Shown here: positions 14,799 to 35,693 of the stretch, one piece after another
Position numbering within the stretch: position 1 is the stretch's first letter
Layout of the letters: each line of letters starts with the position of its first letter
Assembly: GCA_045542115.1 (NCBI GenBank)
Contig: JAZQKK010000014.1
Span: 338,790 to 402,789, forward strand
Reading direction: 5' to 3'
Length of the DNA: 64,000 bases
From: Eubacteriales bacterium
GTDB taxonomy: Bacteria > Bacillota > Clostridia > Oscillospirales > UBA644
Position numbers and translations under genes: made by a program
Notes under the pieces: generated by a model
Database searches by the model: none
What the model saw: the letters and a program-made list of their open reading frames with translations, nothing else
Told to the model about the DNA's origin: nothing

Positions 14799-14804
14799 GT
14801 CTTT

Positions 14805-14939: not shown

Positions 14940-15030
14940 TGGCGGAGATGGAGAGATTTGAACTCTCGCGCCGGTCTCCCGACCTACACCCTTAGCAGGG
15001 GCGCCTCTTCACCAACTTGAGTACATCTCC
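14940..15030 (-). tRNA. tRNA-Ser (anticodon GCU), long variable arm, CCA encoded
   Basis: Reverse complement GGAGATGTACTCAAGTTGGTGAAGAGGCGCCCCTGCTAAGGGTGTAGGTCGGGAGACCGGCGCGAGAGTTCAAATCTCTCCATCTCCGCCA. Anticodon loop CTGCTAA, T-loop TTCAAAT. Confidence 0.9.
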
Positions 15031-18428: not shown

Positions 18429-19490
18429 TTATTTATTTTCATCAGGATTCAAAGAATCGTAGTAATCACTGAATTCTTCGTCCCGGTCAAAATGCAACGG
18501 AGGAATCTGGTCTTCCTCGGGGGTGGGTTGCAGTAACGGATCGGCAGGGTCCGCATCGGTGGAGAAGGTAAAGACCAGCAAATTAAACGCCAGAAGTGCC
18601 GCCAACAAATAGATACCGAAGGAAGTAAAAATCTCTTTTAATGCAATCTTATTGGGGGTAATTTGTTTATCCGGTTCTCTGCGGGGAAAGAAGAGAAAAT
18701 AAGCGGCAGCAACCCCAAACACCAAACCGATAAGAATCAGAAAATTGACGTAAATAGTGTATTCTTTCCAAGAAGCAATCAGCCACCACACCGAAAGAGA
18801 CAACTGGCTTGCGGCATTCAGAGCCATACAGCACCAGAAATTCCGTACCCGCAGATAAAACCAACCTAAAAGGAATCCGGTAACAAGGCGGATAACGATA
18901 TGATAGGGATGTCCGTCGCTGAACGCGAAAGCAACCGTAGAGACCAAGACCGCGGCAAGGGTATTTTCCTCTTTCATCCCGTTCAATGCAATGCCCCGGA
19001 AGGCAAATTCATAGGAAAAAGAAGAAAGAAAGGTGGACAGAAGAAGGTAGTATCCCATCTGTAACGGGTTGTTTCCCAAATTCGGGACCGTGATGGCGGA
19101 ATGAACCCCCATCCCTTCCAACAGGGACAAGCCGCCGTCGGTCAGTCCGGCAAGACCGATGGTCAGCCCCGAAACCGCCAAAACGCCGAGAAGGGTCCGC
19201 AGAAGAGGATGTTCCGAACGGGGCGTTTCCCGAAACAGGGGTAATACCGGGTCTCTGCGCAGTTTCTGAAATACAAAAAAGGGCAAGATAACTGCCACGG
19301 CGTTGGACACCAGCGTCAGGGCCGTGGAGAGATAGTAATTCAAATAGGGAACGGCAAGGCCGGAAAGTCCGCCCAGAACAAACTGCAACACCCAAACAAA
19401 GACCGTAACCACGAAAATACCACAGTATAAGTCCCGCAAGCGGGTACGATGCGCCTGTTCTTCCAGGGTCAATTCTACACGTTTTTTCAT
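18429..19490 (-). CDS. CPBP-family intramembrane protease (CAAX/Abi-type)
   Basis: Polytopic membrane protein with SYEFAFRG and FAFSDGH motifs resembling the CPBP EExxxR/FxxxH motifs. Confidence 0.6.
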   Translation of the reverse strand: MKKRVELTLEEQAHRTRLRDLYCGIFVVTVFVWVLQFVLGGLSGLAVPYLNYYLSTALTLVSNAVAVILPFFVFQKLRRDPVLPLFRETPRSEHPLLRTLLGVLAVSGLTIGLAGLTDGGLSLLEGMGVHSAITVPNLGNNPLQMGYYLLLSTFLSSFSYEFAFRGIALNGMKEENTLAAVLVSTVAFAFSDGHPYHIVIRLVTGFLLGWFYLRVRNFWCCMALNAASQLSLSVWWLIASWKEYTIYVNFLILIGLVFGVAAAYFLFFPRREPDKQITPNKIALKEIFTSFGIYLLAALLAFNLLVFTFSTDADPADPLLQPTPEEDQIPPLHFDRDEEFSDYYDSLNPDENK

Positions 19491-19714
19491 ATTCTAAAAG
19501 ACCTTTCCCTCATTCTTATTTCAGTATATCACATTTTGCGTTCAATTGCAAGAGGAAATGAAAATTTTATACAATTTAATTTTACGGTTATCCACAAATT
19601 TTTCCACAGTTTTTCGAACGATTGTTCAAAAGTCACACCACCAAAGAATGGAAAAATATGGTACAATAGAACCACGGTGAGAGACGGGCGGATACAGGAG
19701 CAGAAATCAAAACG

Positions 19715-20101
19715 TTGCTCCTTCCCAATCCACCCCAATCCATCGAACACAAGAAAGGAGGGACGGTTCTGAACGAATACGGAACACTGCAACAGCAAAT
19801 CGTTCGGTTGGCATTGGAATATATCAAAGAAATCCTAAGCGACAACACGGCGGACTACGGCGACTACCGGGTAGAAGACGGGGAGTTTCGCTTTTGTCCC
19901 CGGGAAGGAATTCATATTCCCGCCGACCGGGTCAGCGAATGGAACATTTCCAAAAGCGGCGGCGGAAAGATACGCTTTTTCGATAAAGCGGCGGCCATCG
20001 CTCTGGCAAAATCCATCGGTGTTTTTAACCTTACCCAAAGTGAAGAAACGGAAGACCTGAGTGACGATGCCCTGTTCGGTGATTCTGACGCCGAAATATG
20101 A
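19715..20101 (+). CDS. Small-terminase-like protein retaining only the C-terminal (oligomerisation/TerL-binding) part
   Basis: GGGKIRFFDKAAAIALAKSIGVFNL matches the conserved ...KLHDKLKALELLGKHLGMF... tail of Terminase_2-type TerS. No N-terminal HTH. ATGA overlap with TerL. Start uncertain (TTG 19715; AGGAGG at 19756). Confidence 0.55.
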   Translation: MLLPNPPQSIEHKKGGTVLNEYGTLQQQIVRLALEYIKEILSDNTADYGDYRVEDGEFRFCPREGIHIPADRVSEWNISKSGGGKIRFFDKAAAIALAKSIGVFNLTQSEETEDLSDDALFGDSDAEI

Positions 20102-21423
20102 TTAAGAAAAAGACCATTCCTTGGAATTTTTCCGAAAAGCAGAAGACCTATTTAAACCGCTGTCGCACCGCCACGTATAATTTCGCGGAAGGAGCGGTTC
20201 GGTCGGGGAAAACCGTCTGCAACGTTCTGGCCTTTGCCCGAGCCTTGGAGACCACCCCGGACCGGCTTCATTTGGCTACGGGAGTAACCATCGCCGCGGC
20301 AAAACTGAACTTAGGAGACTGTAACGGCTTTGGGCTGGAACATCTGTTTCGGGGACGTTGCCGCTGGGGCAGGTATCACGAAAATCCTGCCCTTTACGTG
20401 GAGACCAAGACCGGTCCGAAAACGGTGCTTTTTGCCGGAGGCGGAAAATCCGACAGTTATAAACGAATTCGGGGAAATTCCTACGGATTATGGATTGCCA
20501 CCGAGGTAAACAAGCATCATCTGGCCGACGACGACACCTGCTTTTTGCAAGAAGCCTTCAATCGTCAGTTGGCGGCAAAACGGCGGCAGGTTTTTTGGGA
20601 TTTCAACCCCGACTACCCAAAACATCCCGTCTACGTGAAATACGTGGATAAATTTCGAAACGACGGACTGGACGTAAATTATATGCATTTCACCATTTTT
20701 GACAACCCCGCCGTTGGAAAATCGCAGTTGGAAAGCATTTTGCGGCAGTATCAAAAGGGGAGCGTGTGGTATCGGCGTTGGATTTTGGGGGAACGGTGTG
20801 CGGCGGAAGGGTTAATATTTCCGGAATTCACGGAGAATTCCAAACGCTGGACCGTACAAACCCCGCCCGAAGACATTGCGTTTATCACCGTAGGCTGTGA
20901 CTACGGGGGGACGATGTCCCGAACGGTCTTTACTGCGGTAGGCATCCGGGAAGAATACCGCGGCGTCTGCGTGCTTGCCTGTCGGCGATTGGAAAAGGGA
21001 AAAGGGAAAATCACCCCCGACGACCTGGAACGGGAGTTTATTCAATTTATTTTTGACGTGGAACGGCGGTTTCATAACCGTCCCCGGTATGCTTTTATGG
21101 ATTCGGAGGGGCAATACCTGACCAACGGGATTCGGGCCGCTTGTGCCAGGGCGGGACTTTCGGTTGCCATATGCGACTGCAAAAAAGTTACCATCGCCGA
21201 CCGTATCGCTTGCAAGATGCGGTTGATGAACGAAGGGAGATGGAGCGTTCTGGAAGACTGCACCGAAGTCATCTCTTCCACGGGAGAATTGGTCTGGGAC
21301 CCCGATGCCCCCGACCGGCGATTGGACAACGGAACCACCGACGTGGATACCGCCGACGCGGAAGAATACGCCTGGTCCTGTTGGCTCAAAGAATTTTTAA
21401 ACCCTCCGAAAGAAAAGAGGTAA
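20098..21423 (+). CDS. terL: Terminase large subunit (PBSX/Terminase_3 type)
   Basis: 441 aa. Walker A AEGAVRSGKT, Walker B-like LWIATEV. Size and layout typical of the type. Confidence 0.85.
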   Translation: MIKKKTIPWNFSEKQKTYLNRCRTATYNFAEGAVRSGKTVCNVLAFARALETTPDRLHLATGVTIAAAKLNLGDCNGFGLEHLFRGRCRWGRYHENPALYVETKTGPKTVLFAGGGKSDSYKRIRGNSYGLWIATEVNKHHLADDDTCFLQEAFNRQLAAKRRQVFWDFNPDYPKHPVYVKYVDKFRNDGLDVNYMHFTIFDNPAVGKSQLESILRQYQKGSVWYRRWILGERCAAEGLIFPEFTENSKRWTVQTPPEDIAFITVGCDYGGTMSRTVFTAVGIREEYRGVCVLACRRLEKGKGKITPDDLEREFIQFIFDVERRFHNRPRYAFMDSEGQYLTNGIRAACARAGLSVAICDCKKVTIADRIACKMRLMNEGRWSVLEDCTEVISSTGELVWDPDAPDRRLDNGTTDVDTADAEEYAWSCWLKEFLNPPKEKR

Positions 21424-21426
21424 TCA

Positions 21427-22833
21427 ATGGAAACCATACTTTCCTATCTGAAAGAACGGTTCGGATATGACAATATCGACCGGGGTTTTTACCGGAAGAT
21501 AAGCGAATGGGACCGCTGGTACACGGGGAACGGCACCGATTTTCACCGTACCCGGGTCAACAACGGACTTTCGGTCATTGAACACGATTTGAGTCAGATG
21601 AATATGGCCAAAAAGGTAGCCGAAGATTGGGCAAACCTTTTGATGAACGAAAAGACCCGTATTGACACCGACAACGCCGCAGCCGCAGAATTTTTGCGGG
21701 GACACAATGGCAAAGGCGGGGTTTTGGGAGAGAACGATTTCTGGACCGGAATCAATCAACTGGTAGAACGGTCCTTTGCCTTGGGAACGGGGGCCGTGGT
21801 GCTTCGATTGGAACAAGCCCGTATCGACGGACAACACCGGCTTCTCCCCTCTCCTGAGGGAAAGATTCGGTTGGAATACGTCACCGCACCCAACATTATT
21901 CCCCTGTCCTGGCAGGGAAACGACGTGACCGAAGCGGCCTTTGCAGGTTCAATGACCCAGGCAGGTCAGAGCTTGACCTATTTGCAGATTCACCGAAAAG
22001 AAGCCGACGGCTACGTTATCGAAAGCGTCTGCTTTTCCAACAAGACCGGGAAAAAAGTTCCCTTACCCGACGGCATCTGCCCTACGGTACGAACGGGAAG
22101 CAATACCCCTTGGTTCGTACTGATAAAACCCAATTTGGTAAACAATCTCACCGACCTTCCGATGGGGATTTCGGTCTTCGCCAACTCCATCGACATCCTG
22201 AAAGGGTTGGATCTGTGTTACGACAGTTTCCATATGGAATTTTATCTGGGCAAAAAGATGGTCTTTCTCCGAAAAGACCTGATGATGCAAGACCAACAGG
22301 GACGGTTGTATGCCCCCCAGGATTGCAATCGCCAACTGTTTATGTACATCGGAGACAAGAACGTGGACGGAGACCTGCTTCCCCAGGAATTCAACCCGGA
22401 ATTGCGAGTCAAGGACCACGCCGACGCCATTCAGCAGCATTTGAATTATCTGTCCTGTAAATGCGGATTCGGAGACCGGTATTATCGGTTTAACGGAAAC
22501 GCCGCACCGGCAACTGCAACGGAAGTTATCTCCACCGACGCCGCCCTGTACCGTTCGGTGCGCAAGCACGAAATTCTCTTGGAGCAACCCCTTCTTCGTC
22601 TGACCGAAGCGATTCTTTCCGTCGGACGGGAGATTTTAGGTCGCCCCATTCCCGAAGAAGTTGCTCTTTCGGTCCACTTCGACGACAGTATCATCGAAGA
22701 CCGGACGGCAGAGCAAAAGCGAGATATGGAGCTGGTTTCTTTGGGATTGATGCTAGATTGGGAATTCCGGATGAAGCATTACGGAGAAACCGAGCAGACT
22801 GCCAAAGCACGGTGTAAGGAGAAACGGCAATGA
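21427..22833 (+). CDS. Portal protein (SPP1 Gp6-like)
   Basis: 468 aa immediately after TerL. The N-terminal ISEWDRWYTGNGTDFH...MNMAKKVAEDWANLLMNEK pattern is typical of Gp6-type portals. Confidence 0.8.
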   Translation: METILSYLKERFGYDNIDRGFYRKISEWDRWYTGNGTDFHRTRVNNGLSVIEHDLSQMNMAKKVAEDWANLLMNEKTRIDTDNAAAAEFLRGHNGKGGVLGENDFWTGINQLVERSFALGTGAVVLRLEQARIDGQHRLLPSPEGKIRLEYVTAPNIIPLSWQGNDVTEAAFAGSMTQAGQSLTYLQIHRKEADGYVIESVCFSNKTGKKVPLPDGICPTVRTGSNTPWFVLIKPNLVNNLTDLPMGISVFANSIDILKGLDLCYDSFHMEFYLGKKMVFLRKDLMMQDQQGRLYAPQDCNRQLFMYIGDKNVDGDLLPQEFNPELRVKDHADAIQQHLNYLSCKCGFGDRYYRFNGNAAPATATEVISTDAALYRSVRKHEILLEQPLLRLTEAILSVGREILGRPIPEEVALSVHFDDSIIEDRTAEQKRDMELVSLGLMLDWEFRMKHYGETEQTAKARCKEKRQ

Positions 22834-23231
22834 GCGAAGAAAACAAGCAAACGCCCCTGTCGGTGGAAGAATTGTCCGCCCTGATTCCCGAAGGGTACGC
22901 CCTGGTGGAAAAGGACGGCTGGATTCCTCGTCAGCAGGCGGAAGAACAACTGCGCAATCTGTCCTTTGACCGACAGATCGACTTAGAATTGACCCGATGC
23001 GGAGCAAAAAGCTTGACGGCCGCCCGGGCGCTTCTGGACCTGAATCACTTACGGGAAAATCCCGACGGAGTTTCCGCTGCCGTGGGCAAGGTCCGAAAAG
23101 AAAACGACTGGCTCTTTCAACAACAGTCCACCTATTCCAGCGGCGGTGTTTTGGCCCCCCGGCGGTCGGTGGACACCGAAACGATGACCGATGCGGAATA
23201 TTACGCCTATCGGAAACAAATGAAAGGATAA
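22830..23231 (+). CDS. Scaffolding protein (GP20-like)
   Basis: 133 aa between the portal and coat genes. GAKSLTAARALLDLNHL resembles the GP20 family motif. Confidence 0.6.
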   Translation: MSEENKQTPLSVEELSALIPEGYALVEKDGWIPRQQAEEQLRNLSFDRQIDLELTRCGAKSLTAARALLDLNHLRENPDGVSAAVGKVRKENDWLFQQQSTYSSGGVLAPRRSVDTETMTDAEYYAYRKQMKG

Positions 23232-23240
23232 AAAACGATT

Positions 23241-24323
23241 ATGAACAACTTTTTGACTACCAAAACTATTGCAAGAGAAGCCCTTCCCATTCTGGAATCC
23301 AATCTGGTCTTCCCTGCGCTTATCTACAAGGATTATTCCGAAGACTTCTCCAAGCAGGGCGACACCATTCAGGTTCGCAAGCCTCCCGTATACAACGCCT
23401 CCGAATTTGACGGAGAAATTGATATCCAGGATATCAACGAAGGGGAAGTTCTCGTCAAGCTGGACAAGATCGCCGACGTATCCGTGGAATTGACCGCCAA
23501 GGAAATGGCCTTGAACGCGGAAGATTTCACCAAGCAGGTGATTGAGCCTGCGATGGTTGCCATTGCAGAAAAAATCAATGCCGACGGCCTTGCCCTTTAC
23601 AAAGACGTTGCCAACATTTACACCCCCGAATCGGGCAAGCCTTCTTCCCTGTCCGATCTTGCAGGCGGTGCCAAGATTTTGAACGACAACAAGGCTCCCC
23701 TCGTGGGCAGAAGCGGCGTTTGGAACACCGAAGCGATTGCAAACTTCCAGGTTCTTCCCGCTCTGGTCAATGCGGAAAAATCCGGTTCCACCGATGCTCT
23801 GAGAGAAGGGTCTGTCGGTCGGGTCTTCGGCGTAGACCACTTCTTCTCTCAGCAGGTTCCCGAACATACGGCGGGGAATTTCTCCGGAAAGGCAACCGTT
23901 GATACCGTAAACGCCTACGGCTACGTTTCCATCTCCGGTGGAAACGGCTCTTTGTACTGCGGAGACATTCTGCAAATCGGAGAGAAGACCTACACCGTAA
24001 CGGAAGACGTGAACAGCGACGGAAATACCGTCACGGTTCCGGTTTCTCCTCAGGCCAAACAGGAGGACGTCGTCGGGAAGGACGTTACGGTCCTTGGAAA
24101 CCATACCGCCAATCTGATGTTCCAGAAGAACGCCTTTGGCTTTGTGACCCGTCCCTTGGAAGCGGCCCGCGGTGCAGACAGCTACGTGACCAATTACAAC
24201 GGTCTTTCCGTCCGTGTCACGATGGACTACAACATCGCCACCAAGAAACAGACTCTTTCCATTGATACGCTGTACGGCTTTAAGACCCTGTACCCCGAAC
24301 TTGCCGTCCGCGTTGTTGGCTAA
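23241..24323 (+). CDS. Major capsid protein (P22-coat-like family)
   Basis: 360 aa. N-terminal TKTIAREALPILESNLVFPALIYKDYS...GDTIQVRKP is characteristic. No protease gene in the cluster. Confidence 0.8.
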   Translation: MNNFLTTKTIAREALPILESNLVFPALIYKDYSEDFSKQGDTIQVRKPPVYNASEFDGEIDIQDINEGEVLVKLDKIADVSVELTAKEMALNAEDFTKQVIEPAMVAIAEKINADGLALYKDVANIYTPESGKPSSLSDLAGGAKILNDNKAPLVGRSGVWNTEAIANFQVLPALVNAEKSGSTDALREGSVGRVFGVDHFFSQQVPEHTAGNFSGKATVDTVNAYGYVSISGGNGSLYCGDILQIGEKTYTVTEDVNSDGNTVTVPVSPQAKQEDVVGKDVTVLGNHTANLMFQKNAFGFVTRPLEAARGADSYVTNYNGLSVRVTMDYNIATKKQTLSIDTLYGFKTLYPELAVRVVG

Positions 24324-24342
24324 GAAAACCGTTTTATATTCT

Positions 24343-24366
24343 GCGTCTCTCCTTCGGGAGAGACGC
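24343..24366 (+). other. Perfect 10-bp stem / TTCG-loop hairpin just after the capsid gene
   Basis: GCGTCTCTCC-ttcg-GGAGAGACGC with no U-tract. Likely an mRNA-stabilising or partial terminator element. Confidence 0.6.
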
Positions 24367-24385
24367 CCAGACAGGAGGCAAACCT

Positions 24386-24742
24386 ATGCAAGCCATTACC
24401 AAAACGGAATTTGACCTGACCCACCGGTCGGAGAATCTGGAAGAAGAGGAATTTGACCTGCTTTCTCAGTTAGCGTTGGACCTGACCAATCTGTTGTGTT
24501 TTGGCCGAGCCGACCGAGACGAAGGCTCCGCCCGGCGCGCAATGAAAGAAATGATCGGCTATTGGGTCGCCCGGGGAGGGATGTCCGCCGTCAGCGGACA
24601 GGCAACCCCCAAAAGCGAGAGAATCGGGAATTATTCAGTAACCAATCGGGAGGAAAATGCCGTTACACTCAACGGCGTCTCCATCGCCCCCCAAGCGCTG
24701 TTGATTCTGGACAATGCAAATCTCCGCAACCGAAACCTGTAA
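24386..24742 (+). CDS. Head-tail connector (gp6-like) candidate
   Basis: 118 aa; call from position after the capsid gene and size. Confidence 0.45.
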   Translation: MQAITKTEFDLTHRSENLEEEEFDLLSQLALDLTNLLCFGRADRDEGSARRAMKEMIGYWVARGGMSAVSGQATPKSERIGNYSVTNREENAVTLNGVSIAPQALLILDNANLRNRNL

Positions 24743-24754
24743 AGGAGGAATGGG

Positions 24755-25120
24755 ATGACCGTAACTATTTTTAACCGTTTGGGAGAGGACGAGCAGGGCA
24801 ACGGAAGATACAAACCCTGCGTCTTCCGAAACGCCTATATCGAGACCAAAAATGCGGCAAATCCCGTCTATTCGGGGGAACGGAACAACGATAACTTCCG
24901 CTTGTATCTGTTCACCGACCGGGGATATCTGCCCGGGGAGGAATTTCGAAACGCGCCGGGAAGCCATTGGACCTTGGAGCCGGGAGACCTTTTGGCGTTG
25001 GGGATTCACAAAGAAATTCCCCAAAACCCGTTTCGAATCAATACAATAAACGTATTTTATGCCCGAGACAAATTTCATCACTGGGAGGTGAGCGGCCGTG
25101 GGCAGTTGCTGGAATCGTAA
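24755..25120 (+). CDS. Head-closure / minor capsid-type protein candidate
   Basis: 121 aa; call from position in the head-tail joining block. Confidence 0.4.
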   Translation: MTVTIFNRLGEDEQGNGRYKPCVFRNAYIETKNAANPVYSGERNNDNFRLYLFTDRGYLPGEEFRNAPGSHWTLEPGDLLALGIHKEIPQNPFRINTINVFYARDKFHHWEVSGRGQLLES

Positions 25121-25526
25121 TTACCGCCAGGCAGTCATCGACTTTTTATCCCCCGTTACCGGTCCTATTGCCACGGAGTATCTTTCCAACGCCGACGGAA
25201 GTGTGGCGATGGAAGAATTGCGGGGAGAACCGAATTTCATCTGCTTCATCGACGGAAGCCGCCTCTCCCGATACGACTTTAATCTTTACGTGCGGACTCA
25301 CGGGCGGGATACCGCATCCCGAAACAAAGCCGTGGACACTCTGATGCGGGCAGCCAACAAATGTGCCGCGGAACGTCCCTTTGAAGGAGCGTATCTGGAA
25401 ATGACCGAGTTTCCCTATTTATTCAACCGCAATATGTCGGGAAACGAAGAATACAAAGCGGAGTTTTCCCTCTTTTTTCGCACCCAAAAGCCCGGAGAAA
25501 ACTCCACACAGGAGGCTGAGGTATGA
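25098..25526 (+). CDS. Minor capsid / tail-completion-type protein candidate
   Basis: 142 aa. GTG start after GGGAGGTGA. Call from position. Confidence 0.4.
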   Translation: MGSCWNRNYRQAVIDFLSPVTGPIATEYLSNADGSVAMEELRGEPNFICFIDGSRLSRYDFNLYVRTHGRDTASRNKAVDTLMRAANKCAAERPFEGAYLEMTEFPYLFNRNMSGNEEYKAEFSLFFRTQKPGENSTQEAEV

Positions 25527-25978
25527 TAGAAAAAAGCGACGACAGAGTCTGGATTTACAGCAATATCAGTAAAAAATATCATTTGCTGGGAGCGGGTATC
25601 ACAAGTCTGCGGGAATCCTATCGGAGCACCCTTTTGGAGACGCCGAATATTCATACCGGATTTTGCGGAAGAGAGATCCTGTATCATACGGGACAATTGG
25701 AATTTGACGGTTTCTGGGTCCAAGACACCGCCCAAGAGGTTTTGCGAAGCAAAGCGCTAAAACGAGGAGTCCAAGAATTGGTCACCGTCATCATCGCCAA
25801 CAACAACGGACACCTCAGCGATACCTATTACGATGCCCGCAGGGTGCGGGGTTACGTCTGTCTGGAAAACCCCGGCTCGGGGGAAAGCCCCTACGGGTCC
25901 CGCATCAAAGGGAAAATCGTATACGCCGAAGCACCGGAGGAAGGAATCTTCAATGAATCGACCCAAAACTTTGGCTGA
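25523..25978 (+). CDS. Major tail (tube) protein candidate
   Basis: 151 aa. LGAGITSLRESYRSTLLETPNIHTG...FDGFW pattern and position directly before the Gp15-like gene. Confidence 0.45.
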   Translation: MIEKSDDRVWIYSNISKKYHLLGAGITSLRESYRSTLLETPNIHTGFCGREILYHTGQLEFDGFWVQDTAQEVLRSKALKRGVQELVTVIIANNNGHLSDTYYDARRVRGYVCLENPGSGESPYGSRIKGKIVYAEAPEEGIFNESTQNFG

Positions 25979-26375
25979 CCTGCTGGACGGAACCTATCTC
26001 CCGAAAACCGTGACGGTAGCAGGGATTTCTTATCCGATACGTTGGGATTTTTCCACGGCGCTCCGCTTTATGGAATACGTGGATACGTCCCGGGATGATG
26101 ACGAAACTTTTTTGAAAACCGTCTTAGAGATATGGTATCCGAAAGTCCCCGAAGATACTGACGAAGCATTGACCCAGGTGATTCGTTTTTACTGTGGCGG
26201 AGATTTGCCGGGAGAAGGATATTACACTCCCCTCTTCCCTCCATCGGAAGACTGTACCCCTCTTTACGGGGAATTTACCCGACAGTTTGGAATCGATTTA
26301 CAAAGAGACCCGGTTCATTGGTGGGTCTTCCGCCGGTTGCTGGGACTTTGGAAAGAAAGGAGCAGAACACTGTGA
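25953..26375 (+). CDS. Phage Gp15-family protein (tail-assembly-chaperone position)
   Basis: ISYPIRWDFSTALRF and LYGEFTRQFGIDLQRDPVHWWVFRRLLGL match my recollection of the Gp15 family (I.TDFR...; IYA.F...YGIDL....LHWWKF.AL..GL). Start moved to ATG 25953. Confidence 0.65.
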   Translation: MNRPKTLADLLDGTYLPKTVTVAGISYPIRWDFSTALRFMEYVDTSRDDDETFLKTVLEIWYPKVPEDTDEALTQVIRFYCGGDLPGEGYYTPLFPPSEDCTPLYGEFTRQFGIDLQRDPVHWWVFRRLLGLWKERSRTL

Positions 26376-26521
26376 AACAAGAACAAACGCCCACACCTTC
26401 CATAGAACGGGTGGAATTACCCCCGTTGACCTTTCGCCGTCCCGACCCCGCCGACGAGACCGACCGCATCGGACGGGAGATCGTGCGAAGAATGATTGAA
26501 GCCGGGGTGGTGGAACCGTGA
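26372..26521 (+). CDS. 49-aa ORF, or -1 frame extension of the Gp15-like chaperone
   Basis: GTG 26372 in a GTGA overlap, preceded by AAAGGAG. The same frame is open from 26318, which is the -1 frame relative to 25953-26375. Confidence 0.35.
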   Translation: MKQEQTPTPSIERVELPPLTFRRPDPADETDRIGREIVRRMIEAGVVEP

Positions 26522-27570
26522 TAACGTTCCGTATCGGAGGGATCGACCACACCGCGGCTCTGCAAGAAGGAACGTTGGTAATTCGCCATTACGGGGCCTT
26601 GCGATCTACCTTCCGGGCCACCCTGTTTTTCCGAAAGATCCCAAGCCAGATTCCGAAAGCGGGGCAGGAAATTCTCGTGTCGGAAGACGGAGCGCTGCTT
26701 TGGGGCGGAATTCTGGTGGAGACCGAACAGGTCTGCCACAGCACCCAAAGTTGTTCGATAACGCTGCGGGGCCAAGGATATGAACAGATCTTACAACGAT
26801 ACTGTCTTCCCGGGATAGTATTATCCCATCAAACCCCGTCCCAAGCCGTGCAATATCTGTTTCAGAATTATCTCAACCCCGCAGATAATCTGATTCTGGG
26901 CGAGGTAGAACCGGGGATTTCCCAAACCTTTCCTTACACCTTTTTCCCCGCAAAAGCCTCTTCGGTTTTGGACCGATTGGCAAAAGAAAACGGGTTCGTA
27001 TGGTGGGTGGATAAAAATAAGACCTTTTATATGAAATCTAAAATCCCCCAATGGAGTCAAACGCTCTCCATTGACCTGACCCAAACCGAGCCCAATCGAA
27101 TCAACGATCTTCAAACCTTCGTCTACCGGGAATCTACGGCGGATTATAAAAACATTCAGCGGATCTATAACCGAGCCAACGGCGTGGAAGGAGCATATCT
27201 CCACGTAGACCGGCTACGGGAAATGGGTCAACGTTACGGAGGCGGAGAGTATGGAGGAGCGGCGGCAAACTCTGCGGTAACCCACCAAGACGAAGCAAAA
27301 GCGGTAGGGGGACAAATGATGGAATCCAGTCCGGGACTGGGAGAAATCGAATTTACCACCGACCTGAGCGGCTTTGCTCCGGGACAGGTGCTGGGGGTCA
27401 CTGCTCCGGTGTGCGGAATGGAAACAAAACGGTATTTCTGTATTACCGAAATTCGCGCCGTCTATTTTTTTGACCGTTTCCGTTATACCGTAACCGCAAA
27501 ACAGACCGATTCCGGCCCCTTGGCAACCACTTGTTGGGAGGCGATATTGGCAGACGGCGCAACCAATTGA
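26518..27570 (+). CDS. Tail hub / distal-tail-type structural protein
   Basis: 350 aa. N-terminal pattern (IGGIDHT...L.I....G..S.F.A.L...P.AGQEILV...G.LLWGGILV) resembles hub/late-control-D-type tail proteins. GTGA coupling to the previous ORF. Confidence 0.4.
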   Translation: MITFRIGGIDHTAALQEGTLVIRHYGALRSTFRATLFFRKIPSQIPKAGQEILVSEDGALLWGGILVETEQVCHSTQSCSITLRGQGYEQILQRYCLPGIVLSHQTPSQAVQYLFQNYLNPADNLILGEVEPGISQTFPYTFFPAKASSVLDRLAKENGFVWWVDKNKTFYMKSKIPQWSQTLSIDLTQTEPNRINDLQTFVYRESTADYKNIQRIYNRANGVEGAYLHVDRLREMGQRYGGGEYGGAAANSAVTHQDEAKAVGGQMMESSPGLGEIEFTTDLSGFAPGQVLGVTAPVCGMETKRYFCITEIRAVYFFDRFRYTVTAKQTDSGPLATTCWEAILADGATN

Positions 27571-27584
27571 AGAGGTGAAAAACG

Positions 27585-28139
27585 ATGATTATCAAACAAT
27601 ACTTACCCTTCCGGGCTTCTCGGGAGGGATGGATTCCCGACCGACTGTACGTGCAGTTTATCCCACAGGATGCAACGCAGCTGTCCGAAGAATTGACTCG
27701 GCGCACAAAAACCGTCCATTACCATTTAAGCAATGACGGCACGGTAACTGCATTAACTCCCCTGTCTGCCGCCGCAACTTATCTGAACCAAACGGAAGAC
27801 ACGGAAGATTCCCCCGCAAAACGGGGAATCTTGGTGATGATTCAGGGGGAAAAAATTACCGAAGAACAACGGGAACCTCTGCTTCGGCTGTTGAAGGGAA
27901 TCCAAAAGGAGATTTTACGTATCTACGGGGAAGCCTTTCCCTTTTGCCGGGAACGAATCCGTTCCGACCGGGAGCTTTCTCCGGAAATTCTGGAATTGGG
28001 GTATTTGGAGCCGAAAAATCCCCTGCTTTTCCGGGTTCAGACCGGAAATTACCGTACTCGAAAAGACGCGGAAGATAGCGTGGAACGTCTGCAAAAAGCG
28101 GGAATCGCAGCCTACATTACGGAGGTGAGATGCTCGTGA
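27585..28139 (+). CDS. Tail-associated protein with C-terminal SPOR-like peptidoglycan-binding domain
   Basis: LFRVQTGNYRTRKDAEDSVERLQKAGIAAYITEV resembles the SPOR motif (yrVQvGaf..r.nAe....L...G..a.i). The N-terminal part is weakly amidase_2-like (VHYHLSNDGTVTALTP). Confidence 0.5.
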   Translation: MIIKQYLPFRASREGWIPDRLYVQFIPQDATQLSEELTRRTKTVHYHLSNDGTVTALTPLSAAATYLNQTEDTEDSPAKRGILVMIQGEKITEEQREPLLRLLKGIQKEILRIYGEAFPFCRERIRSDRELSPEILELGYLEPKNPLLFRVQTGNYRTRKDAEDSVERLQKAGIAAYITEVRCS

Positions 28140-28594
28140 TACAAACCTTATATCTCACCTTGTCCGGGGGATTTTCCGAGGAAGAAGCCTTTGCGGTTAA
28201 GTCCGACAAAGACCTTTCCACCTTGCGATGCGTTCTGCGGGGATACCGATACGCCCCCTACGACACCGCCTTACTGCGGGCAACGAAACCCGACGGGACG
28301 GTCTGCTATCTTTCGGGCATCAACGACGGAGAAAACGCGTTTCGTTTCACCCTGACCGAGCAGATGACCACCGTTACGGGAGACGTTTTATGTGACGTCA
28401 GCGTCTGTCGGGGGACGGGAACGGTTTCCAGTGACCAATTTATTATCAAAGTGCGCCCCCCTTCGGCGGCGGGGGCGATGACCGCCAGTGAAAGTGAATA
28501 TTTGGGATTTTCGGATTTGATTCTCAACACCGTAGCGGCGGAAGAAATTTCGAACCAAGAAATCAATTCTATATGGGAGGAGGTTGAAGTATGA
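28130..28594 (+). CDS. BppU-N-like baseplate / receptor-binding-module protein
   Basis: 154 aa. ...KPDGTVCYL...FRFTLTEQMTTVTGDVLCDVSV...SDQFIIKV pattern resembles BppU_N (DUF2479). Confidence 0.4.
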   Translation: MLVIQTLYLTLSGGFSEEEAFAVKSDKDLSTLRCVLRGYRYAPYDTALLRATKPDGTVCYLSGINDGENAFRFTLTEQMTTVTGDVLCDVSVCRGTGTVSSDQFIIKVRPPSAAGAMTASESEYLGFSDLILNTVAAEEISNQEINSIWEEVEV

Positions 28595-28728
28595 AATATT
28601 TGAGCGAAAGCGGATTGCGTCATCTTATCAGCAAGATTATGGCGAAATTTACAGAACTGGAAAACACTTCCGGCGGCACGGAAATTTCCACCAGTGAAAT
28701 CGATACGATGTGGGAGGATGCAGCGTAA
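28591..28728 (+). CDS. 45-aa ORF made of fibre N-terminal and C-terminal motifs
   Basis: Own translation: MKYLSESGLRHLISKIMAKFTELENTSGGTEISTSEIDTMWEDAA. ATGA and TAATG coupling to its neighbours. Confidence 0.45.
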   Translation: MKYLSESGLRHLISKIMAKFTELENTSGGTEISTSEIDTMWEDAA

Positions 28729-29858
28729 TGAAATATCTTGGCGAAACCGGTGTAAAACACCTGATTGAAAAAATGAAACGGGAAATCCGGGACTTACAGG
28801 ATTTGATTCTTCCGGAAGAAGACCCCCTTCCCTCCGACCCCATCCAACCCGTAGAATCCTGGTCGGAAGTCAAGTCCATCGTACAAAGCGGACTTGCTCC
28901 TTCTACCTTTGCTTTGGGAGATTTGTTTCAATGCGAACACCAGAAGTTTGGAACACTGACCTGGCAAATCGTAGGATTTGACCAAGAGTCGATTGCAATG
29001 GGAACCGGCACGGAGCACAGTATGACGCTCCAATTGGTCGATCCGTTGCCTTCAATGCCCTTTAACTCCCCCCACGTTCTCCACGAAAATCTGTACACCG
29101 TATCCCCCGGAACTTATACGACTCAACTTCCCAGCGGATATTTTCCTTCCAATAACGTATCCTTCGTTTTAGACCGGGAAATTCCCCCGAACAGCAAATT
29201 TATTCTTCGGGTTCCCGACGACGAGAATCTGTCAGAAGTGAAAATGTACATTCATACGTCCAACGACGAAATTTTTCATTATCCCGTCACGTGGGAGAAC
29301 AGCGGAATCGCATTGGAAATGATGGCGTTTGACGAACGGGCTTATTGGGGATGGAATTTTTGGATTGATTGCGATATCGACCAATATCTGAACTCGTACG
29401 AAAGTGCGGGAAACGTCTGGAATCAACTGCAATATCCCTTTGGATGGCCCTTGTGGAAAAACACGGAAGACGGATTTATCCGGGGATTGGAATCCTCGTT
29501 CTGCGATGTTTTGGCCAACGTCAAACAACCTTTTTACGACCAAGACCTGGGGGCTGTGGATTCGAACCAGAGCAGAATGTTCTATCTTCCTACCCTAACG
29601 CAGGTATATGGGGCGAGCACCGATGATTACCATCCCTGCCCCGCCTATTCCTATTACACCACAGATACAATTCCCGGAGACTCGGAACAGGAAAACCGGA
29701 AAAAGACCCGGGACGGCCAGCCCTGCGCCTGGTGGCTGAGAACGCCCGTATCCGGGAAAAATACCCATCTTTATGTCGTGGATACGGACGGCTCGATTGT
29801 TGAAAAACCCGCGTCCAACGATTCGGTAGGCATTGCACCGATGTGCTGTATCGCATAA
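28728..29858 (+). CDS. Tail fibre / receptor-binding protein with WWLR(T/S)P-type C-terminal domain (DUF6273-like)
   Basis: MKYLGETGVKHLIEKMK N-terminus is typical of phage fibres. C-terminal ...PCAWWLRTPVSG...VGIAPMCCIA. Start moved to ATG 28728. Confidence 0.55.
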   Translation: MKYLGETGVKHLIEKMKREIRDLQDLILPEEDPLPSDPIQPVESWSEVKSIVQSGLAPSTFALGDLFQCEHQKFGTLTWQIVGFDQESIAMGTGTEHSMTLQLVDPLPSMPFNSPHVLHENLYTVSPGTYTTQLPSGYFPSNNVSFVLDREIPPNSKFILRVPDDENLSEVKMYIHTSNDEIFHYPVTWENSGIALEMMAFDERAYWGWNFWIDCDIDQYLNSYESAGNVWNQLQYPFGWPLWKNTEDGFIRGLESSFCDVLANVKQPFYDQDLGAVDSNQSRMFYLPTLTQVYGASTDDYHPCPAYSYYTTDTIPGDSEQENRKKTRDGQPCAWWLRTPVSGKNTHLYVVDTDGSIVEKPASNDSVGIAPMCCIA

Positions 29859-29872
29859 AAGGAGAGGAATCA

Positions 29873-30028
29873 ATGTTTCACTATCAACAAAATCTTTCCT
29901 TTCGGGCAAAATTGCTGAAAGAAAAGAAGCGGAAAAAAGCAGCCTTAAAACAACGGTTGGAAAAGGCGAAGACCGTAAAGCAGCTCCGTGGAATTCTGAT
30001 GCAAGCCCTGGAAGAAGGAATCTTATGA
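29873..30028 (+). CDS. Small basic coiled-coil protein
   Basis: 51 aa (MFHYQQNLSFRAKLLKEKKRKK...). AAGGAGAGG RBS. Confidence 0.4.
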   Translation: MFHYQQNLSFRAKLLKEKKRKKAALKQRLEKAKTVKQLRGILMQALEEGIL

Positions 30029-30288
30029 TTTGGCAATCCATCATCACCGCAGCGGCGGTGGTCAGCGGACTGACGGTCCTGGGTGCCGCGGCAGTCAAAA
30101 TCGTTCGATTTTGGCTGGACCAAAAAAATCAGGACCGGGAAATTGACCAGGTCAAACGGGAGATGGGGCTAATTTGTTACGGCGTTTTGGCCTGTCTGGA
30201 CGGATTAAAGCAAATGGGTTGCGACGGAAACGTGACCCAGGCAAAAAACGACCTGGAAAAGTATCTGAACAAAACCGCCCATCAATAA
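30025..30288 (+). CDS. Membrane protein of the lysis cassette (XhlA/holin-accessory-like)
   Basis: 87 aa with one N-terminal TM (IWQSIITAAAVVSGLTVLGAAAV). ATGA coupling. Position before the holin and lysin. Confidence 0.45.
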   Translation: MIWQSIITAAAVVSGLTVLGAAAVKIVRFWLDQKNQDREIDQVKREMGLICYGVLACLDGLKQMGCDGNVTQAKNDLEKYLNKTAHQ

Positions 30289-30304
30289 GAAAGGAGTTTC
30301 TTCG

Positions 30305-30517
30305 ATGAAAGAATGGCTTTACCGGGCATTGCGAACCTTCGGACAGGCAATGCTGGGGTATTTGGCCGCCAATCTGTTGGCGGTAGTGACCCAAGCCGAC
30401 GTGAGTGACCCCACCGGGTTTGCAAATACCCTGTTGGGGTTGTTTGCGGCGGCAGTGGCGGCAGGACTTGCCGCGCTAATGAACCGAGGAAAAGGAGAAC
30501 ACACCGATGACCAATAA
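30305..30517 (+). CDS. Phage holin
   Basis: 70 aa, two TM segments, charged C-terminus. The N-terminal WLYRALRTFGQAMLGYL pattern is common in Firmicute phage holins. Confidence 0.65.
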   Translation: MKEWLYRALRTFGQAMLGYLAANLLAVVTQADVSDPTGFANTLLGLFAAAVAAGLAALMNRGKGEHTDDQ

Positions 30518-31268
30518 AGAATTCGTGGCAAAATTGCTGGACATTGCAAAGAATCACAAGACCGTCTATATGATGGGTACCTTTGGGGCTCCGGTCAGCG
30601 AAAATCTGATCGTGCAGAAAACCAAACAGTATCCCGATTATTATTCGGCGGGTCGGCGAACTCTTCTGAAAGGAAAAATCCCCTTAGGAGCTTGGGGATT
30701 TGACTGCGTTGGCCTCATCAAAGGTGTGCTCTGGGGCTGGACGGGGAATCGGAACGCCTCGTTCGGCGGTGCAAAATACCGGTCCAACGACGTTCCCGAC
30801 ATCTGTGCCAATACGATGGCAAAACGTTGTCTGGACCGAACAGAGACAATGGAACACCTTCTCCCCGGAGAAGCGGTTTATATGAACCGGCACATCGGCA
30901 TTTACGTGGGAGACGGGAAGGTGGTGGAATCCACGCTGATTGGAAAATACGACGGCGTGGTAATCACGGACCTGTCCTTCCGTAAGTGGCTTGGCCACGG
31001 AAAATTGCCTTGGATTACCTATGAACCGGAAGATGAATCCACCGATTCCGAAGCAGAAAACACACCCATTCAAGTAGGTGACACCGTCATCTTTTCCGGG
31101 GGAAAACATTACGTTTCTTCCAACGGAAGTTTGGGATACAAGGCAAAACCCGGCCCCGCAAAGGTCACAAAATACCTTCCCGGAAGGAAACATCCCTATC
31201 ACTTGATTCACACCGATAAAACTTCTAACGTTTACGGCTGGGTCAACGAGGAAACCGTTTCCAAATAA
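30507..31268 (+). CDS. Endolysin: NlpC/P60 cysteine peptidase + C-terminal SH3-like wall-binding domain
   Basis: FDCVGLIKGV (catalytic Cys) and HIGIYVGDGKVVES (His). C-terminal VGDTVIFSGGKHYVSS...VYGWVNEETV. Confidence 0.8.
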   Translation: MTNKEFVAKLLDIAKNHKTVYMMGTFGAPVSENLIVQKTKQYPDYYSAGRRTLLKGKIPLGAWGFDCVGLIKGVLWGWTGNRNASFGGAKYRSNDVPDICANTMAKRCLDRTETMEHLLPGEAVYMNRHIGIYVGDGKVVESTLIGKYDGVVITDLSFRKWLGHGKLPWITYEPEDESTDSEAENTPIQVGDTVIFSGGKHYVSSNGSLGYKAKPGPAKVTKYLPGRKHPYHLIHTDKTSNVYGWVNEETVSK

Positions 31269-31274
31269 TCGGTC

Positions 31275-31301
31275 GGGGCGGTCTGAATTTCAGACCGCCC
31301 C
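31275..31301 (+). terminator. Stem-loop closing the phage-like cluster
   Basis: GGGGCGGTCTGA-att-TCAGACCGCCCC; weak U-tract. Confidence 0.55.
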
Positions 31302-31347: not shown

Positions 31348-31866
31348 GTGATTTTTGTGGAATACCGATTGCTTCGCAGCAGACGAAAAACCATTGCTTT
31401 GCGGGTCTGTCCCGACGGAACGGCAGAAGTGCGGGCTCCCTTGACAATGAGCCGAAAACAGATTGACGCCTTTGTACAAAAGCATCAGGAATGGTGGAGC
31501 AAAACGATTCAATCCACCCAACGGCGAAGGGTTTTCGAACGGGAAATCGACGAAAAAGAACCTTTTCTGCGAAAACAGGCGGAAGAATACCTTCCCCGAC
31601 GGACGGCAGAATGGGCGGCCGTGATGGGAGTACGTCCCACAGGAATCAAAATCACCTCGGCAAAGACCCGGTTTGGGTCTTGCAGTCCGAAAAACGGCAT
31701 TTGCTATTCCTGGCGGCTGATGGCTTACCCCCTCAAAGGGGTGGATTACGTCATCGTGCACGAATTAGCCCATATTTTACAAAAAAATCACTCGGCAAAG
31801 TTTTACGCCGTCGTTCAAAAATACCTTCCCGATTGGAAAGAACGAAGGAAATTATTGCAAAAATAG
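31348..31866 (+). CDS. YgjP-like (DUF45) M48-family metallohydrolase
   Basis: VIVHELAHILQKNHSAKFYAVVQKYLPDWKERRKLL is the family signature (HExxH...NHS..F). Confidence 0.8.
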   Translation: MIFVEYRLLRSRRKTIALRVCPDGTAEVRAPLTMSRKQIDAFVQKHQEWWSKTIQSTQRRRVFEREIDEKEPFLRKQAEEYLPRRTAEWAAVMGVRPTGIKITSAKTRFGSCSPKNGICYSWRLMAYPLKGVDYVIVHELAHILQKNHSAKFYAVVQKYLPDWKERRKLLQK

Positions 31867-33755: not shown

Positions 33756-35456
33756 TCAGTCTTTATTCCGGTTGGAAAGGAAGGTAATAAACCAAAGAAC
33801 CACCAGCATCAGCACCAGGCTGACTCCGAGAACGACCCAGACGTTCTGAACGAATCCGGCCAACAGATAACCGACCAAAGAAACGCCCGCCACCGTCAGC
33901 ACATAAGGCAACTGGGTGGAAACGTGGGTCACGTGGTCACACTGAGCACCGGTGGACGACATAATGGTGGTATCGGAGATGGGAGAACAGTGGTCTCCGC
34001 AAACCGCACCGGCCAAGCAAGCAGAGATGCAGATGATAACCATCGCAGGAATTCCGCCCGCATCGGAAACGGAGGCAAGGTCGGCTTCAAACACACCGGT
34101 AACGATGGGAATGAGGATTCCGAACGTGCCCCAAGAGGTACCGGTAGCAAAGGACAGAAGCACGGCCACCAGGAACAAAATCGCGGGAAGAAGAATACGG
34201 ATAGCAGTAAACTGTTCCACGACGCCGGCAACGAAGGTGGATGCCCCCAAAAGACCGGTCATACTCTTCAAGCCCCAAGCGAAGGTCAGAATCAGAATTG
34301 CGGGAACCATCTGCTTAAATCCTTCGGGAATCGAAGCCATACACTCCTTGAAGGAAAGAACCTTCCGGCACAGGAAATAGATAACGTTGAGAATCAACGC
34401 CGCAACCGACCCCAGAGCAAGACCGTAGGATGCGTCGCAATTTGCAAAGGCGTCAATCAGAGAAACGTCTCCGCCGAACAGCCCGCCGGAGTACAACATC
34501 CCGGCAACGCAGAAGATAATCAGAATGACCACCGGAAGAATCAGGTCGATGACCTTTCCCTTGGCGTTGGCGTTGGCGTGTTCGTCTTCGGTAACGTCTG
34601 CGTGAATTCCGGAGAAAATATCTCCCTTCTTAGCATTCAGCTCGTGCTTCCGCATCGGTCCGAAGTCTTTCCCGGAAAGAGCAATAAACAGAACCATTGC
34701 AATGGTCAAAAGTGCATACAAATTATAGGGAATGGTACGGATAAACAGGGCAATCCCGTTGATGTCCGCCCCGTTGGCATCCTGCACGGTTCCGCTGACG
34801 GCGGCCGCCCAGGAAGAGATGGGAGCAATAATACAGATGGGAGCGGCGGTGGCATCGATGAGATACGCCAGCTTTGCCCGAGAAACGTTCTGCTTGTCGG
34901 TCAAAGGACGCATCACGCTACCCACGGTCAGACAGTTAAAGTAGTCGTCTACGAAAATCAATGCGCCAAGGCCGAAGGTGGACACTTGCGCGCCTCTCCG
35001 GGACTTGATACGCTTCGAGGCCCATTCCCCATAGGCCCGGCTTCCCCCGGCCCGGTTCATCATCACGACGATGATGCCCAAGACCACGAGGAAAATCAAA
35101 ATCCCCACGTTGTACGAATCGGACAGGTTCGCAATAAGTCCATCGTTCAAAATAGCATTAAACGCTTTTTCTCCGTCAAAGCCCGTATTGGAAATACCAT
35201 ACAAAATCCCCCCGGACACGATTCCGATAAACAGGGACGAGTAGGCTTCTTTGGTAATCAAAGCCAGGGCAATAGCAATAATGGGAGGCAAAAGAGCCAA
35301 CGCGGTTTCATTGAATCGGCTTTGATATTCTGCGGTTTCTTCGGCGACGACCGCTTCGGAGTCGATCACTTCATCGGCGGAAAAGGTCAATGCAAACGAG
35401 CCGACGAGGGCAAGACACAAAAGCAGGATCCCGAAAATGCGGGTCAGTTTTTTCAT
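33756..35456 (-). CDS. NhaC-family Na+/H+ antiporter-type transporter (candidate lysine-linked transporter)
   Basis: Polytopic membrane protein of NhaC-like composition. Start moved to ATG 35456 (MKKLTRIFG...) after GGAGGG. Preceded by a lysine riboswitch. Confidence 0.75.
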   Translation of the reverse strand: MKKLTRIFGILLLCLALVGSFALTFSADEVIDSEAVVAEETAEYQSRFNETALALLPPIIAIALALITKEAYSSLFIGIVSGGILYGISNTGFDGEKAFNAILNDGLIANLSDSYNVGILIFLVVLGIIVVMMNRAGGSRAYGEWASKRIKSRRGAQVSTFGLGALIFVDDYFNCLTVGSVMRPLTDKQNVSRAKLAYLIDATAAPICIIAPISSWAAAVSGTVQDANGADINGIALFIRTIPYNLYALLTIAMVLFIALSGKDFGPMRKHELNAKKGDIFSGIHADVTEDEHANANAKGKVIDLILPVVILIIFCVAGMLYSGGLFGGDVSLIDAFANCDASYGLALGSVAALILNVIYFLCRKVLSFKECMASIPEGFKQMVPAILILTFAWGLKSMTGLLGASTFVAGVVEQFTAIRILLPAILFLVAVLLSFATGTSWGTFGILIPIVTGVFEADLASVSDAGGIPAMVIICISACLAGAVCGDHCSPISDTTIMSSTGAQCDHVTHVSTQLPYVLTVAGVSLVGYLLAGFVQNVWVVLGVSLVLMLVVLWFITFLSNRNKD

Positions 35457-35477
35457 ACGGTTCCCTCCAAAATAAAT

Positions 35478-35693
35478 TTCAAACAAAACGTGCCGCGAAG
35501 ATGCTCCGCGACACGTTATTTTTGCAAAATCACGATAGCTCTCCACAAATACTGTGACAGTACGGCACATCTTCTGTACCGTCCCGGAAGCGGCTGAAAG
35601 GCTCTCACCGCAACCTCGGCGATTCCTCTCTTCTGCGCACCCGCCTCGGGCGTTTTTTCGCAGTCGGTAGAAACCGCACCTCTATCTTCGGCC
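35478..35693 (-). promoter_or_regulatory. Lysine riboswitch (L-box) with intrinsic terminator
   Basis: Minus strand begins CCGAAGATAGAGGTGCG (compare B. subtilis lysC GAAGATAGAGGTGCG). Contains GCCGAGG and ends ACTGTCACAG. Then AACGTGTCGCG-gagcatctt-CGCGGCACGTT plus TTGTTTG (35478-35517). Confidence 0.75.

Follow-up and report, generated by a model that had tools for sequence, protein, structure and literature searches.

A compact phage-derived cluster at a fixed locus in uncultured gut Clostridia is very probably domesticated and may be a gene transfer agent-like element

Phage particle and lysis genes that lie in a bacterial chromosome may belong to a mobile element, to a decaying prophage or to a structure that the host has taken over, and we asked which of these accounts for a cluster found in a 64,000-nt stretch of an Eubacteriales bacterium genome (contig JAZQKK010000014.1, positions 338,790 to 402,789; hereafter the window). 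The cluster occupies window positions 19715-31268 on the forward strand, about 11.6 kb of co-directional, tightly packed phage structural and lysis genes. We conclude that it is very probably domesticated, and we put at roughly 60% the probability that it works throughout as a gene transfer agent (GTA)-like viriform: a vertically inherited remnant of an SPP1/A118-like siphophage, expressed as one host-controlled operon, that would build DNA-filled heads with a minimal tail and release them by lysis of the producer. The original prediction, made from the letters of the window, had been a GTA- or PBSX-like domesticated element. Domestication is supported by the fixed locus, by the ratio of nonsynonymous to synonymous substitution rates (dN/dS) and by co-divergence with the flanks, while a PBSX-like anatomy had to be given up for want of a sheath, a tape measure and an Xre-type repressor.

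The comparative evidence comes from relatives, which were gathered by searching with the portal and scanning one genome from each GTDB species and fell into three tiers by portal identity to the window. Group 1, with portals 67-88% identical, consists of metagenome-assembled genomes (MAGs) from ruminant and other guts labelled Clostridia or Eubacteriales bacterium. Here the same module recurs in the same gene order at the same locus, between a CPBP gene and the YgjP/GalT genes, in at least 13 divergent lineages, and only the cassette g14-g16 varies. This locus is shared by L005, L009-L013, L016-L019 and L169; at L001 the upstream neighbour differs and the module's own upstream region is kept. 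Group 2 (portals 50-56% identical; L006-L008 and L020-L034, for example L006 8312-16343) is a sister clade with an 8-9-kb module at its own conserved host locus, other than that of group 1. Its genes encode a truncated small terminase (TerS), the large terminase (TerL), portal, scaffold, coat, neck proteins, tube, hub and holin/amidase, without Gp15, fibre cassette, tape measure or integrase, and it includes human-gut (Hadza) MAGs, one portal cluster occurring in 109 data blocks. Group 3, at portal identities of 44% or less, comprises ordinary siphophages; downstream of Gp15 these encode a tape measure of 380-838 aa, then Dit and Tal.

No integrase, replication gene or tape measure was present in any relative with a portal at least 50% identical, and full siphophages appeared only at 44% or below. 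Within IMG/VR, portals of at least 50% identity were confined to three short fragments, the genuine, substantial viral contigs all lying at or below 44%. A phmmer search of 88 related loci with the window's integrase, a weak test with a single query, returned none beside group-1 or group-2 elements, and the three loci with annotated neighbours (L001, L005 and L169) had no adjacent prophage.

Every gene of the cluster evolves under purifying selection, with dN/dS of about 0.05-0.25 between the window and ten group-1 orthologues (dS saturated at 1-3, dN 0.04-0.5), and neither relaxed selection nor frameshifts were seen in the orthologues. These ratios equal or fall below those of the flanking host genes: TerL dN (0.06-0.13) is below that of the neighbouring CPBP gene (0.19-0.46), and conservation is higher in TerL, the portal, g07 and the holin-like genes than in the host neighbours CPBP and YgjP. 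Pairwise distances of the concatenated element proteins followed the distances between proteins of the host flanks (Pearson r = 0.72, Mantel p ~8e-4). Two hallmarks by which GTAs and viriforms are recognised are therefore found here, namely chromosomal structural genes of phage origin without genes for replication, integration/excision or lysogeny, and vertical inheritance under purifying selection. The fixed locus, the co-divergence and the selection, all read from sequence comparisons, argue strongly against a mobile element.

The cluster contains 19 real genes, and all 19 are intact in the window, as had been predicted, and in orthologous copies. A co-directional, tight run of 21 open reading frames (ORFs) had been described; the run itself stood and the count did not, since three of the ORFs (19449-19772, 26194-26499 and 26496-26783) were rejected as overlapping-frame artefacts and one 49-aa gene had been overlooked. 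Junctions range from -26 to +62 nt with many ATGA/GTGA overlaps, which agrees with the predicted overlaps and gaps of up to about 60 nt everywhere except before g17. There, after the fibre cassette and ahead of the first holin-type gene, lies a 166-nt non-coding gap (29859-30024), the only sizeable one in the operon. Because it coincides with the right-hand border of the stretch that some relatives have and others lack, this gap is probably a cassette-exchange junction. A megablast search with the whole cluster found no match among 50,697 phage genomes, and an Rfam scan of the window found no RNA element tied to the cluster.

Hidden Markov model (HMM) and fold evidence backed nearly every functional label that had been proposed for these genes, all of which lie on the forward strand. 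The first, g01 (19715-20101), aligns with Terminase_2-positive group-2 proteins, which supports its earlier description as TerS-like; these homologues match Pfam Terminase_2 only at profile positions ~46-137 of 141, and g01 is therefore read as a small terminase core without the N-terminal DNA-binding domain. Its start is uncertain. A conserved ribosome-binding site (RBS), AAAGGAGGG (19754-19762), precedes an in-frame CTG at 19769 by 6-7 nt, and the upstream candidate TTG at 19715 is not conserved, so that g01 may use a non-canonical start codon (CTG, not ATG, GTG or TTG). TerL (g02, 20098-21423; phrog_2, E = 2e-28) matched the PBSX-family model TIGR01547 weakly (59.9 bits against a cut-off of 105), and its acidic ATPase and nuclease residues E136, D268, D335 and D401-D420 are kept across 52 homologues, including phage ones.

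The head genes follow directly. The portal (g03, 21427-22833) is of the SPP1/A118 type (phrog_533, E = 6e-91; PF05133, SPP1_portal; TIGR01542 below cut-off), and the scaffolding protein (g04, 22830-23231) was assigned from phrog_194, a match to PF06810 below cut-off (E = 1.6e-7) and Pfam matches in orthologues. The major capsid protein (g05, 23241-24323) is of the P22-coat type (PF11651, E = 2e-46; phrog_283, E = 5e-82) and had no match to the N4-gp56 family in NCBIfam. The neck comprises a head-tail adaptor (g06, 24386-24742; phrog_541, E = 3e-12), a protein in the head-closure position (g07, 24755-25120; phrog_3366, E = 5e-11) and a tail-completion-like protein (g08, 25098-25526; phrog_3266, E = 8e-4).

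The tube and the hub drew no HMM match, and a sequence search of the PDB gave nothing useful for either; AlphaFold2 models compared with Foldseek confirmed both labels (hub E ~1e-18, tube E ~1e-6). The 151-aa tube protein g09 (25523-25978; predicted local distance difference test, pLDDT, 85) matched the tubes of monocin, 80alpha, lambda gpV, SPP1 and the Rhodobacter capsulatus GTA (RcGTA) at E values of 1e-6 to 1e-3. The 350-aa baseplate hub g12 (26518-27570; pLDDT 88, predicted template modelling score 0.83) has the gp27 / Mu gp44 / Tal N-terminal fold, with the hubs of MuSo2 and Mu gp44, VgrG and the tail tips of monocin and 80alpha among its matches at E ~1e-18, and a profile search recovered 741 relatives. 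A Gp15-type tail assembly chaperone (g10, 25953-26375; PF06854, E = 1e-14; phrog_706) lies downstream of the tube gene; in related phages the Gp15-type gene stands directly 5' of the tape measure.

Beyond the hub, g13 (27585-28139) combines a degenerate amidase-like domain with a SPOR peptidoglycan-binding domain (E = 3e-4). The amidase-like part no longer matches the Amidase_2 profile, and its first zinc-binding histidine is apparently lost. In the sister-clade locus L020 the homologue is Amidase_2 plus SPOR, and g13 may be a catalytically dead amidase kept as a cell-wall-binding tail accessory. Next comes the variable fibre or receptor-binding cassette, made up of g14 (28130-28594, a weak BppU_N match), the 45-aa g15 (28591-28728) and the fibre-type DUF6273 protein g16 (28710-29858), which among orthologous elements is present, absent or just 27-29% identical. 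Two holin-type proteins were assigned from hydropathy and orthologue lengths, the 87-aa g17 with an N-terminal transmembrane segment (30025-30288, its start at ATG 30025 judged from orthologues) and the hydrophobic 70-aa g18 (30305-30517); a match to phrog_4316 falls on a small hydrophobic protein in this pair. The operon ends with g19 (30507-31268), an NlpC/P60 endolysin with a C-terminal endolysin-type binding domain (PF00877, E = 2e-5; phrog_20388, E = 2e-19).

Which phage functions, then, are absent? Pfam and PHROG scans of all cluster genes gave no match to an integrase, repressor, replication protein, tape measure, Dit or sheath, which bears out the original prediction on integrase, repressor, replication and tape measure, and the same functions, sheath aside, were absent from precomputed Pfam tables for the orthologous clusters. 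The siphophage tail module of tube, G/Gp15 chaperone, tape measure, Dit and Tal is accordingly incomplete, with tube, Gp15 and hub present and tape measure and Dit absent. The position that the tape measure holds in related phages is taken by the overlooked gene, g11 (26372-26521), which encodes a conserved 49-aa protein and has GTGA overlaps with both the chaperone gene g10 and the hub gene g12. We found it in 12 group-1 loci, each time with its own RBS, with the motif FRRPxPxDExDRIGREIVRRMIEAGV and the invariant C-terminal motif DRIGREIVRRMIEAGV; neither group 2 nor L169, the deepest branch of group 1, has this gene. Jackhmmer recovered group-1 orthologues only, and hhalign against seven tape measures of related phages gave probabilities below 1%. 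A weak, non-significant resemblance links its R[LI]GR[KE]I ... A(R)G[IV] pattern to the C-terminus of one tape measure (L035), and we regard a vestigial tape measure or hub plug as a speculative identity for g11. That it might be a -1 frameshift T extension of the chaperone was rejected as the main reading, there being no conserved slippery site and an RBS and start codon in every orthologue.

The region upstream of g01 (19491-19714), characterised by a promoter scan and an alignment of 10 orthologous upstream regions, suggests how such an operon might be controlled. On the forward strand it holds a promoter TTGCAA-N18-TACAAT (-35 at 19546-19551, -10 at 19570-19575) and two tandem, perfect or near-perfect 9-mers, TTATCCACA (19588-19596) and TTTTCCACA (19600-19608), of the form TTWTCCACA, identical to the DnaA-box consensus. 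Seven nucleotides past this repeat lies CGAACGATTGTTC (19615-19627), which fits the Gram-positive LexA, or 'Cheo', box CGAAC-N4-GTTC, and an extended -10 element, TGGTACAAT, follows at 19659-19667. The promoter, the DnaA-box-like, LexA-like and extended -10 blocks and a strong RBS are invariant across the 10 aligned regions, at divergences where synonymous sites are saturated. In 12/12 distinct group-1 loci scanned, the LexA-like box stands at -478 to -484 from the TerL start and the tandem boxes at -493 to -511; as this distance holds even at L001, with its different upstream gene, the boxes belong to the element. It is unusual for sites of the DnaA type and the LexA type to stand together ahead of an operon derived from a phage. 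Control of the operon by the host SOS response or by replication stress is a well-motivated reading of these sites, drawn from their motifs and conservation.

The surroundings of the cluster are those of an ordinary chromosome. Upstream lie the divergent CPBP/Rce1-like gene (18429-19490, reverse strand) and genes for a TIM-barrel protein, an FAD oxidoreductase and an AraC regulator; downstream are the YgjP-like gene (31348-31866), whose perfect TTGACA-17-TATAAT promoter fits the earlier description of both flanks, then GalT and an antiporter gene. Att-like direct repeats around the cluster were limited to short, chance-level matches. A lysine riboswitch (Rfam RF00168, 68.7 bits; 35528-35692, reverse strand) is upstream of the Na+/H+ antiporter-family gene (33756-35570). 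Farther along the window, a protein with SipL/SPOCS and LysM domains is encoded at 59202-60845; this architecture is typical of clostridial spore-coat morphogenesis and suggests that the host is a spore-former.

About 5 kb upstream of the cluster, with four host genes between, ends a separate canonical prophage (window 1-14880). It carries a TerL of the Terminase_6N type (1936-3411, reverse strand) unrelated to that of the cluster, an N6/N4 DNA methylase (7117-7926, reverse strand), a repressor with a CI-like HTH and a Peptidase_S24 domain (10866-11831), an Mrr-type nuclease (11854-13509) in a patch of 38-41% GC, and a tyrosine integrase (13568-14602) that abuts tRNA-Ala (14805-14880), itself followed by tRNA-Ser (14940-15030). 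We rejected the integrase and repressor at 10.8-14.6 kb as parts of the cluster, given that they belong to this prophage, with its own Terminase_6N TerL at tRNA-Ala, and that the intervening host genes are syntenic in other species.

Taken as a working GTA-like element, the cluster would act in a sequence of steps that can be proposed from homology and analogy. DNA damage or replication stress would lift repression at the operator region with its LexA-like and DnaA-box-like sites, and the operon would be transcribed as a single translationally coupled unit, the gene overlaps making such coupling possible. Proheads would be built from scaffold, P22-type coat and portal, and TerL, together with a TerS that lacks a sequence-reading domain, would then fill them by a headful mechanism with any chromosomal DNA, by analogy with RcGTA and with FpGTA, the GTA of Faecalibacterium prausnitzii. 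The element's own DNA should not be enriched in these heads, because it has no replication or excision functions. The adaptor, closure and completion proteins would seal the head; the tube protein g09, aided by the Gp15-type chaperone, would join g11 and a trimer of the gp27-type hub in a stub of a tail, expected to be very short for want of a tape measure and Dit. Contact with cell wall and receptor could be made by the SPOR protein and the exchangeable fibre cassette, and the two holin-type proteins and the NlpC/P60 endolysin would release the particles. Turnover of the fibre cassette beside a conserved core is the pattern expected if particles must still bind cells. On this account the element would package random host DNA, for which the missing DNA-binding domain of the small terminase is an indirect sign, and may transfer it. 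In the classic criterion for a GTA, the capacity of the head is smaller than the coding locus.

Several points weigh against this proposal. The element is known from its genes, and all its known carriers are uncultured MAGs. The LexA assignment derives from motif similarity and conservation: the pattern occurs once in the 64-kb window where about 5 would be expected by chance, so its support is positional conservation and not enrichment. The left half-site of the box is degenerate in the deepest group-1 branch, L169, and the sister clade has another promoter without a LexA-like box; in the L021/L027-L033 sublineage this is an extended -10 promoter, TGTGATATTAT, with a conserved leader. The tape measure, Dit or other absent tail parts could be encoded elsewhere in the genome, beyond the 64-kb window. 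Finally, a tail of tube and hub without tape measure and Dit has no characterised precedent, and DNA injection might be impossible, as in PBSX.

This last doubt leads to a different view of the particle, in which SOS-triggered lysis would release a PBSX- or bacteriocin-like killer, or serve altruistic lysis, so that the particles bind or kill competitors or free DNA and nutrients, and any packaged DNA is incidental and undelivered. Domestication and host-type control fit this view equally well, ejection of DNA through a tail without tape measure and Dit may be impaired, and the element includes both a variable cassette for receptor binding and a SPOR protein for cell-wall binding; the same doubt has been raised for FpGTA, and PBSX does not inject its DNA (PMC12946183). 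We nevertheless consider it unlikely. No sheath or other membrane-puncturing device is present that would explain killing, and TerS, TerL and portal are among the most constrained genes (dN 0.06-0.2), a constraint that is sensible only if DNA packaging itself matters. Less probable still is a capsid-forming satellite or other helper-dependent element, which would supply its own heads and packaging and rely on a helper, such as the prophage that lies 5 kb upstream (window 1-14.8 kb) and encodes a separate TerL, a repressor and an integrase, for induction or tail parts. The content of TerS, TerL, portal, coat, connectors and lysis genes does resemble that of capsid-forming phage-inducible chromosomal islands (cf-PICIs), which are likewise compact, carry packaging, capsid and connector genes and have no complete tail; tape measure and Dit are missing here too, and a 12.7-kb Butyricicoccaceae candidate, which by its description may be similar to the element, has been likened to cf-PICIs (bioRxiv 10.64898/2026.07.08.737213). 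However, cf-PICIs belong to the mobile elements: they have an integrase and att sites, modules for replication and regulation, and a need for a helper phage. Genes for an integrase, an excisionase, a primase or other replication protein, or a regulator were lacking in every copy of the element. No att repeats flank it, it stays at one chromosomal position and diverges together with its flanks in at least 13 lineages, it brings its own tube, hub, fibres and lysis genes, and no prophage adjoins it at L001, L005 or L169, where the neighbours are annotated.

A recently decayed, functionless prophage remnant, left by deletion of the lysogeny, replication and tape-measure regions, is the least credible account, and we judge it very improbable despite the tape-measure-sized gap exactly where related phages have tape measure and Dit. 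Intact genes (19/19, here and in orthologous copies), dN/dS far below 1 at saturated dS, identical synteny across lineages down to 67% portal identity, a conserved promoter/operator region and an independently conserved sister clade all speak against it, and such comparative data have in effect refuted it already. A domesticated, GTA-like element thus remains our preferred reading.

How does this element relate to known systems? Literature searches returned no description of this family. The suggestion that its arrangement was new to the literature needs amending, as a precedent in this bacterial group, FpGTA, was published in 2026 (PMC12946183); the gene set does differ. FpGTA, the nearest analogue in print, forms 40-nm particles without visible tails that hold 8.4-8.9 kb of host DNA, and is encoded by a 10.5-kb head operon and a 5.5-kb baseplate/lysis operon (Borodovich et al., Nat Commun 2026; PMC12946183). 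Both elements come from strictly anaerobic gut Clostridia and have a small gene set that lacks integrase and replication genes and comprises a small terminase without DNA-binding domain, TerL, portal, scaffold, capsid, baseplate/fibre proteins, holin and endolysin, and in both the tail is apparently very short or absent, as judged here from genes. The FpGTA capsid protein, RCH50849.1, is named as N4-gp56 family (PMC12946183, supplementary file 4) whereas the coat of the element is of the P22 type, a comparison made through annotation and family assignment. FpGTA further occupies two loci ~125 kb apart, one for head and packaging and one for baseplate, fibre and lysis, and has a Prp-like protease, while the element fills one 11.6-kb locus and, unlike FpGTA, has a siphophage tube, a Gp15 chaperone, a gp27-type hub and a LexA-like operator. 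Membership of the FpGTA family therefore fails on the capsid and on the two-operon layout, although the TerS without a DNA-binding domain is shared.

RcGTA and related alphaproteobacterial GTAs likewise have a head-to-tail structural operon (~15 kb), vertical inheritance, host regulators and a small terminase without DNA-binding domain, and they share tube and hub with the element at the level of the fold only. LexA influences RcGTA. They differ in an HK97-type capsid with prohead protease, in a tape measure, Dit and megatron, and in lysis and fibre genes at other loci, where the element has a P22-type coat with scaffold, no protease, tape measure or Dit, and lysis genes inside the operon; as the host phylum is different, the two represent independent domestications. 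PBSX of Bacillus subtilis, a defective phage-like element from the Firmicutes, is induced by the SOS response, packages host DNA, has its own lysis genes and carries a TerL distantly related to that of the element, but it spans ~28 kb and has a contractile sheath, a tape measure and an Xre repressor of its own, all of which the element lacks. The SPP1/A118-like siphophages of group 3 (for example L035, L041 and L170) share homologous TerL, portal (38-44% identity), P22-type coat (44-51% identity), tube and Gp15 with the element in the same order, the tube family phrog_3099 occurring both in L041 and in group-2 L006. In the element, the 380-838-aa tape measure, Dit, Tal and the further tail and phage genes that these phages carry on 20-100-kb viral contigs have been lost. 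The best reading of these comparisons is that domestication was independent and that the element is distinct from FpGTA (by annotation and family assignment), RcGTA and PBSX.

To our knowledge, GTA families that were domesticated independently number no more than a handful, and PBSX was the sole Gram-positive example until 2026. The comparative data mark out one more domestication, separate from these, in uncultured Clostridia of ruminant and human guts, for which the evolutionary support is unusually clean in its fixed locus, flank co-divergence and strong purifying selection. Abundant GTA-like packaging has been reported from gut viromes in Oscillospiraceae, Christensenellaceae and Butyricicoccaceae, with the genes mostly unidentified (PMC12946183; bioRxiv 10.64898/2026.07.08.737213), and also in other gut Clostridia without an identified gene cluster (PMC12946183). 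The portal, coat and hub profiles offer search handles for the GTA genes of those gut taxa. We tentatively suggest that the window clade and its 8-9-kb sister clade, which is common in assemblies from the human gut, together form a GTA family, domesticated independently and so far unrecognised, of uncultured gut Clostridia, with the window clade stub-tailed and induced by SOS or replication stress, and that this family could be a source of some of the small-fragment host DNA in gut viromes without known GTA genes. The conserved LexA-like operator leads to the direct hypothesis that particle production is induced by DNA damage, and the pairing of tube and hub without tape measure or Dit could reveal the smallest functional siphophage-derived tail.

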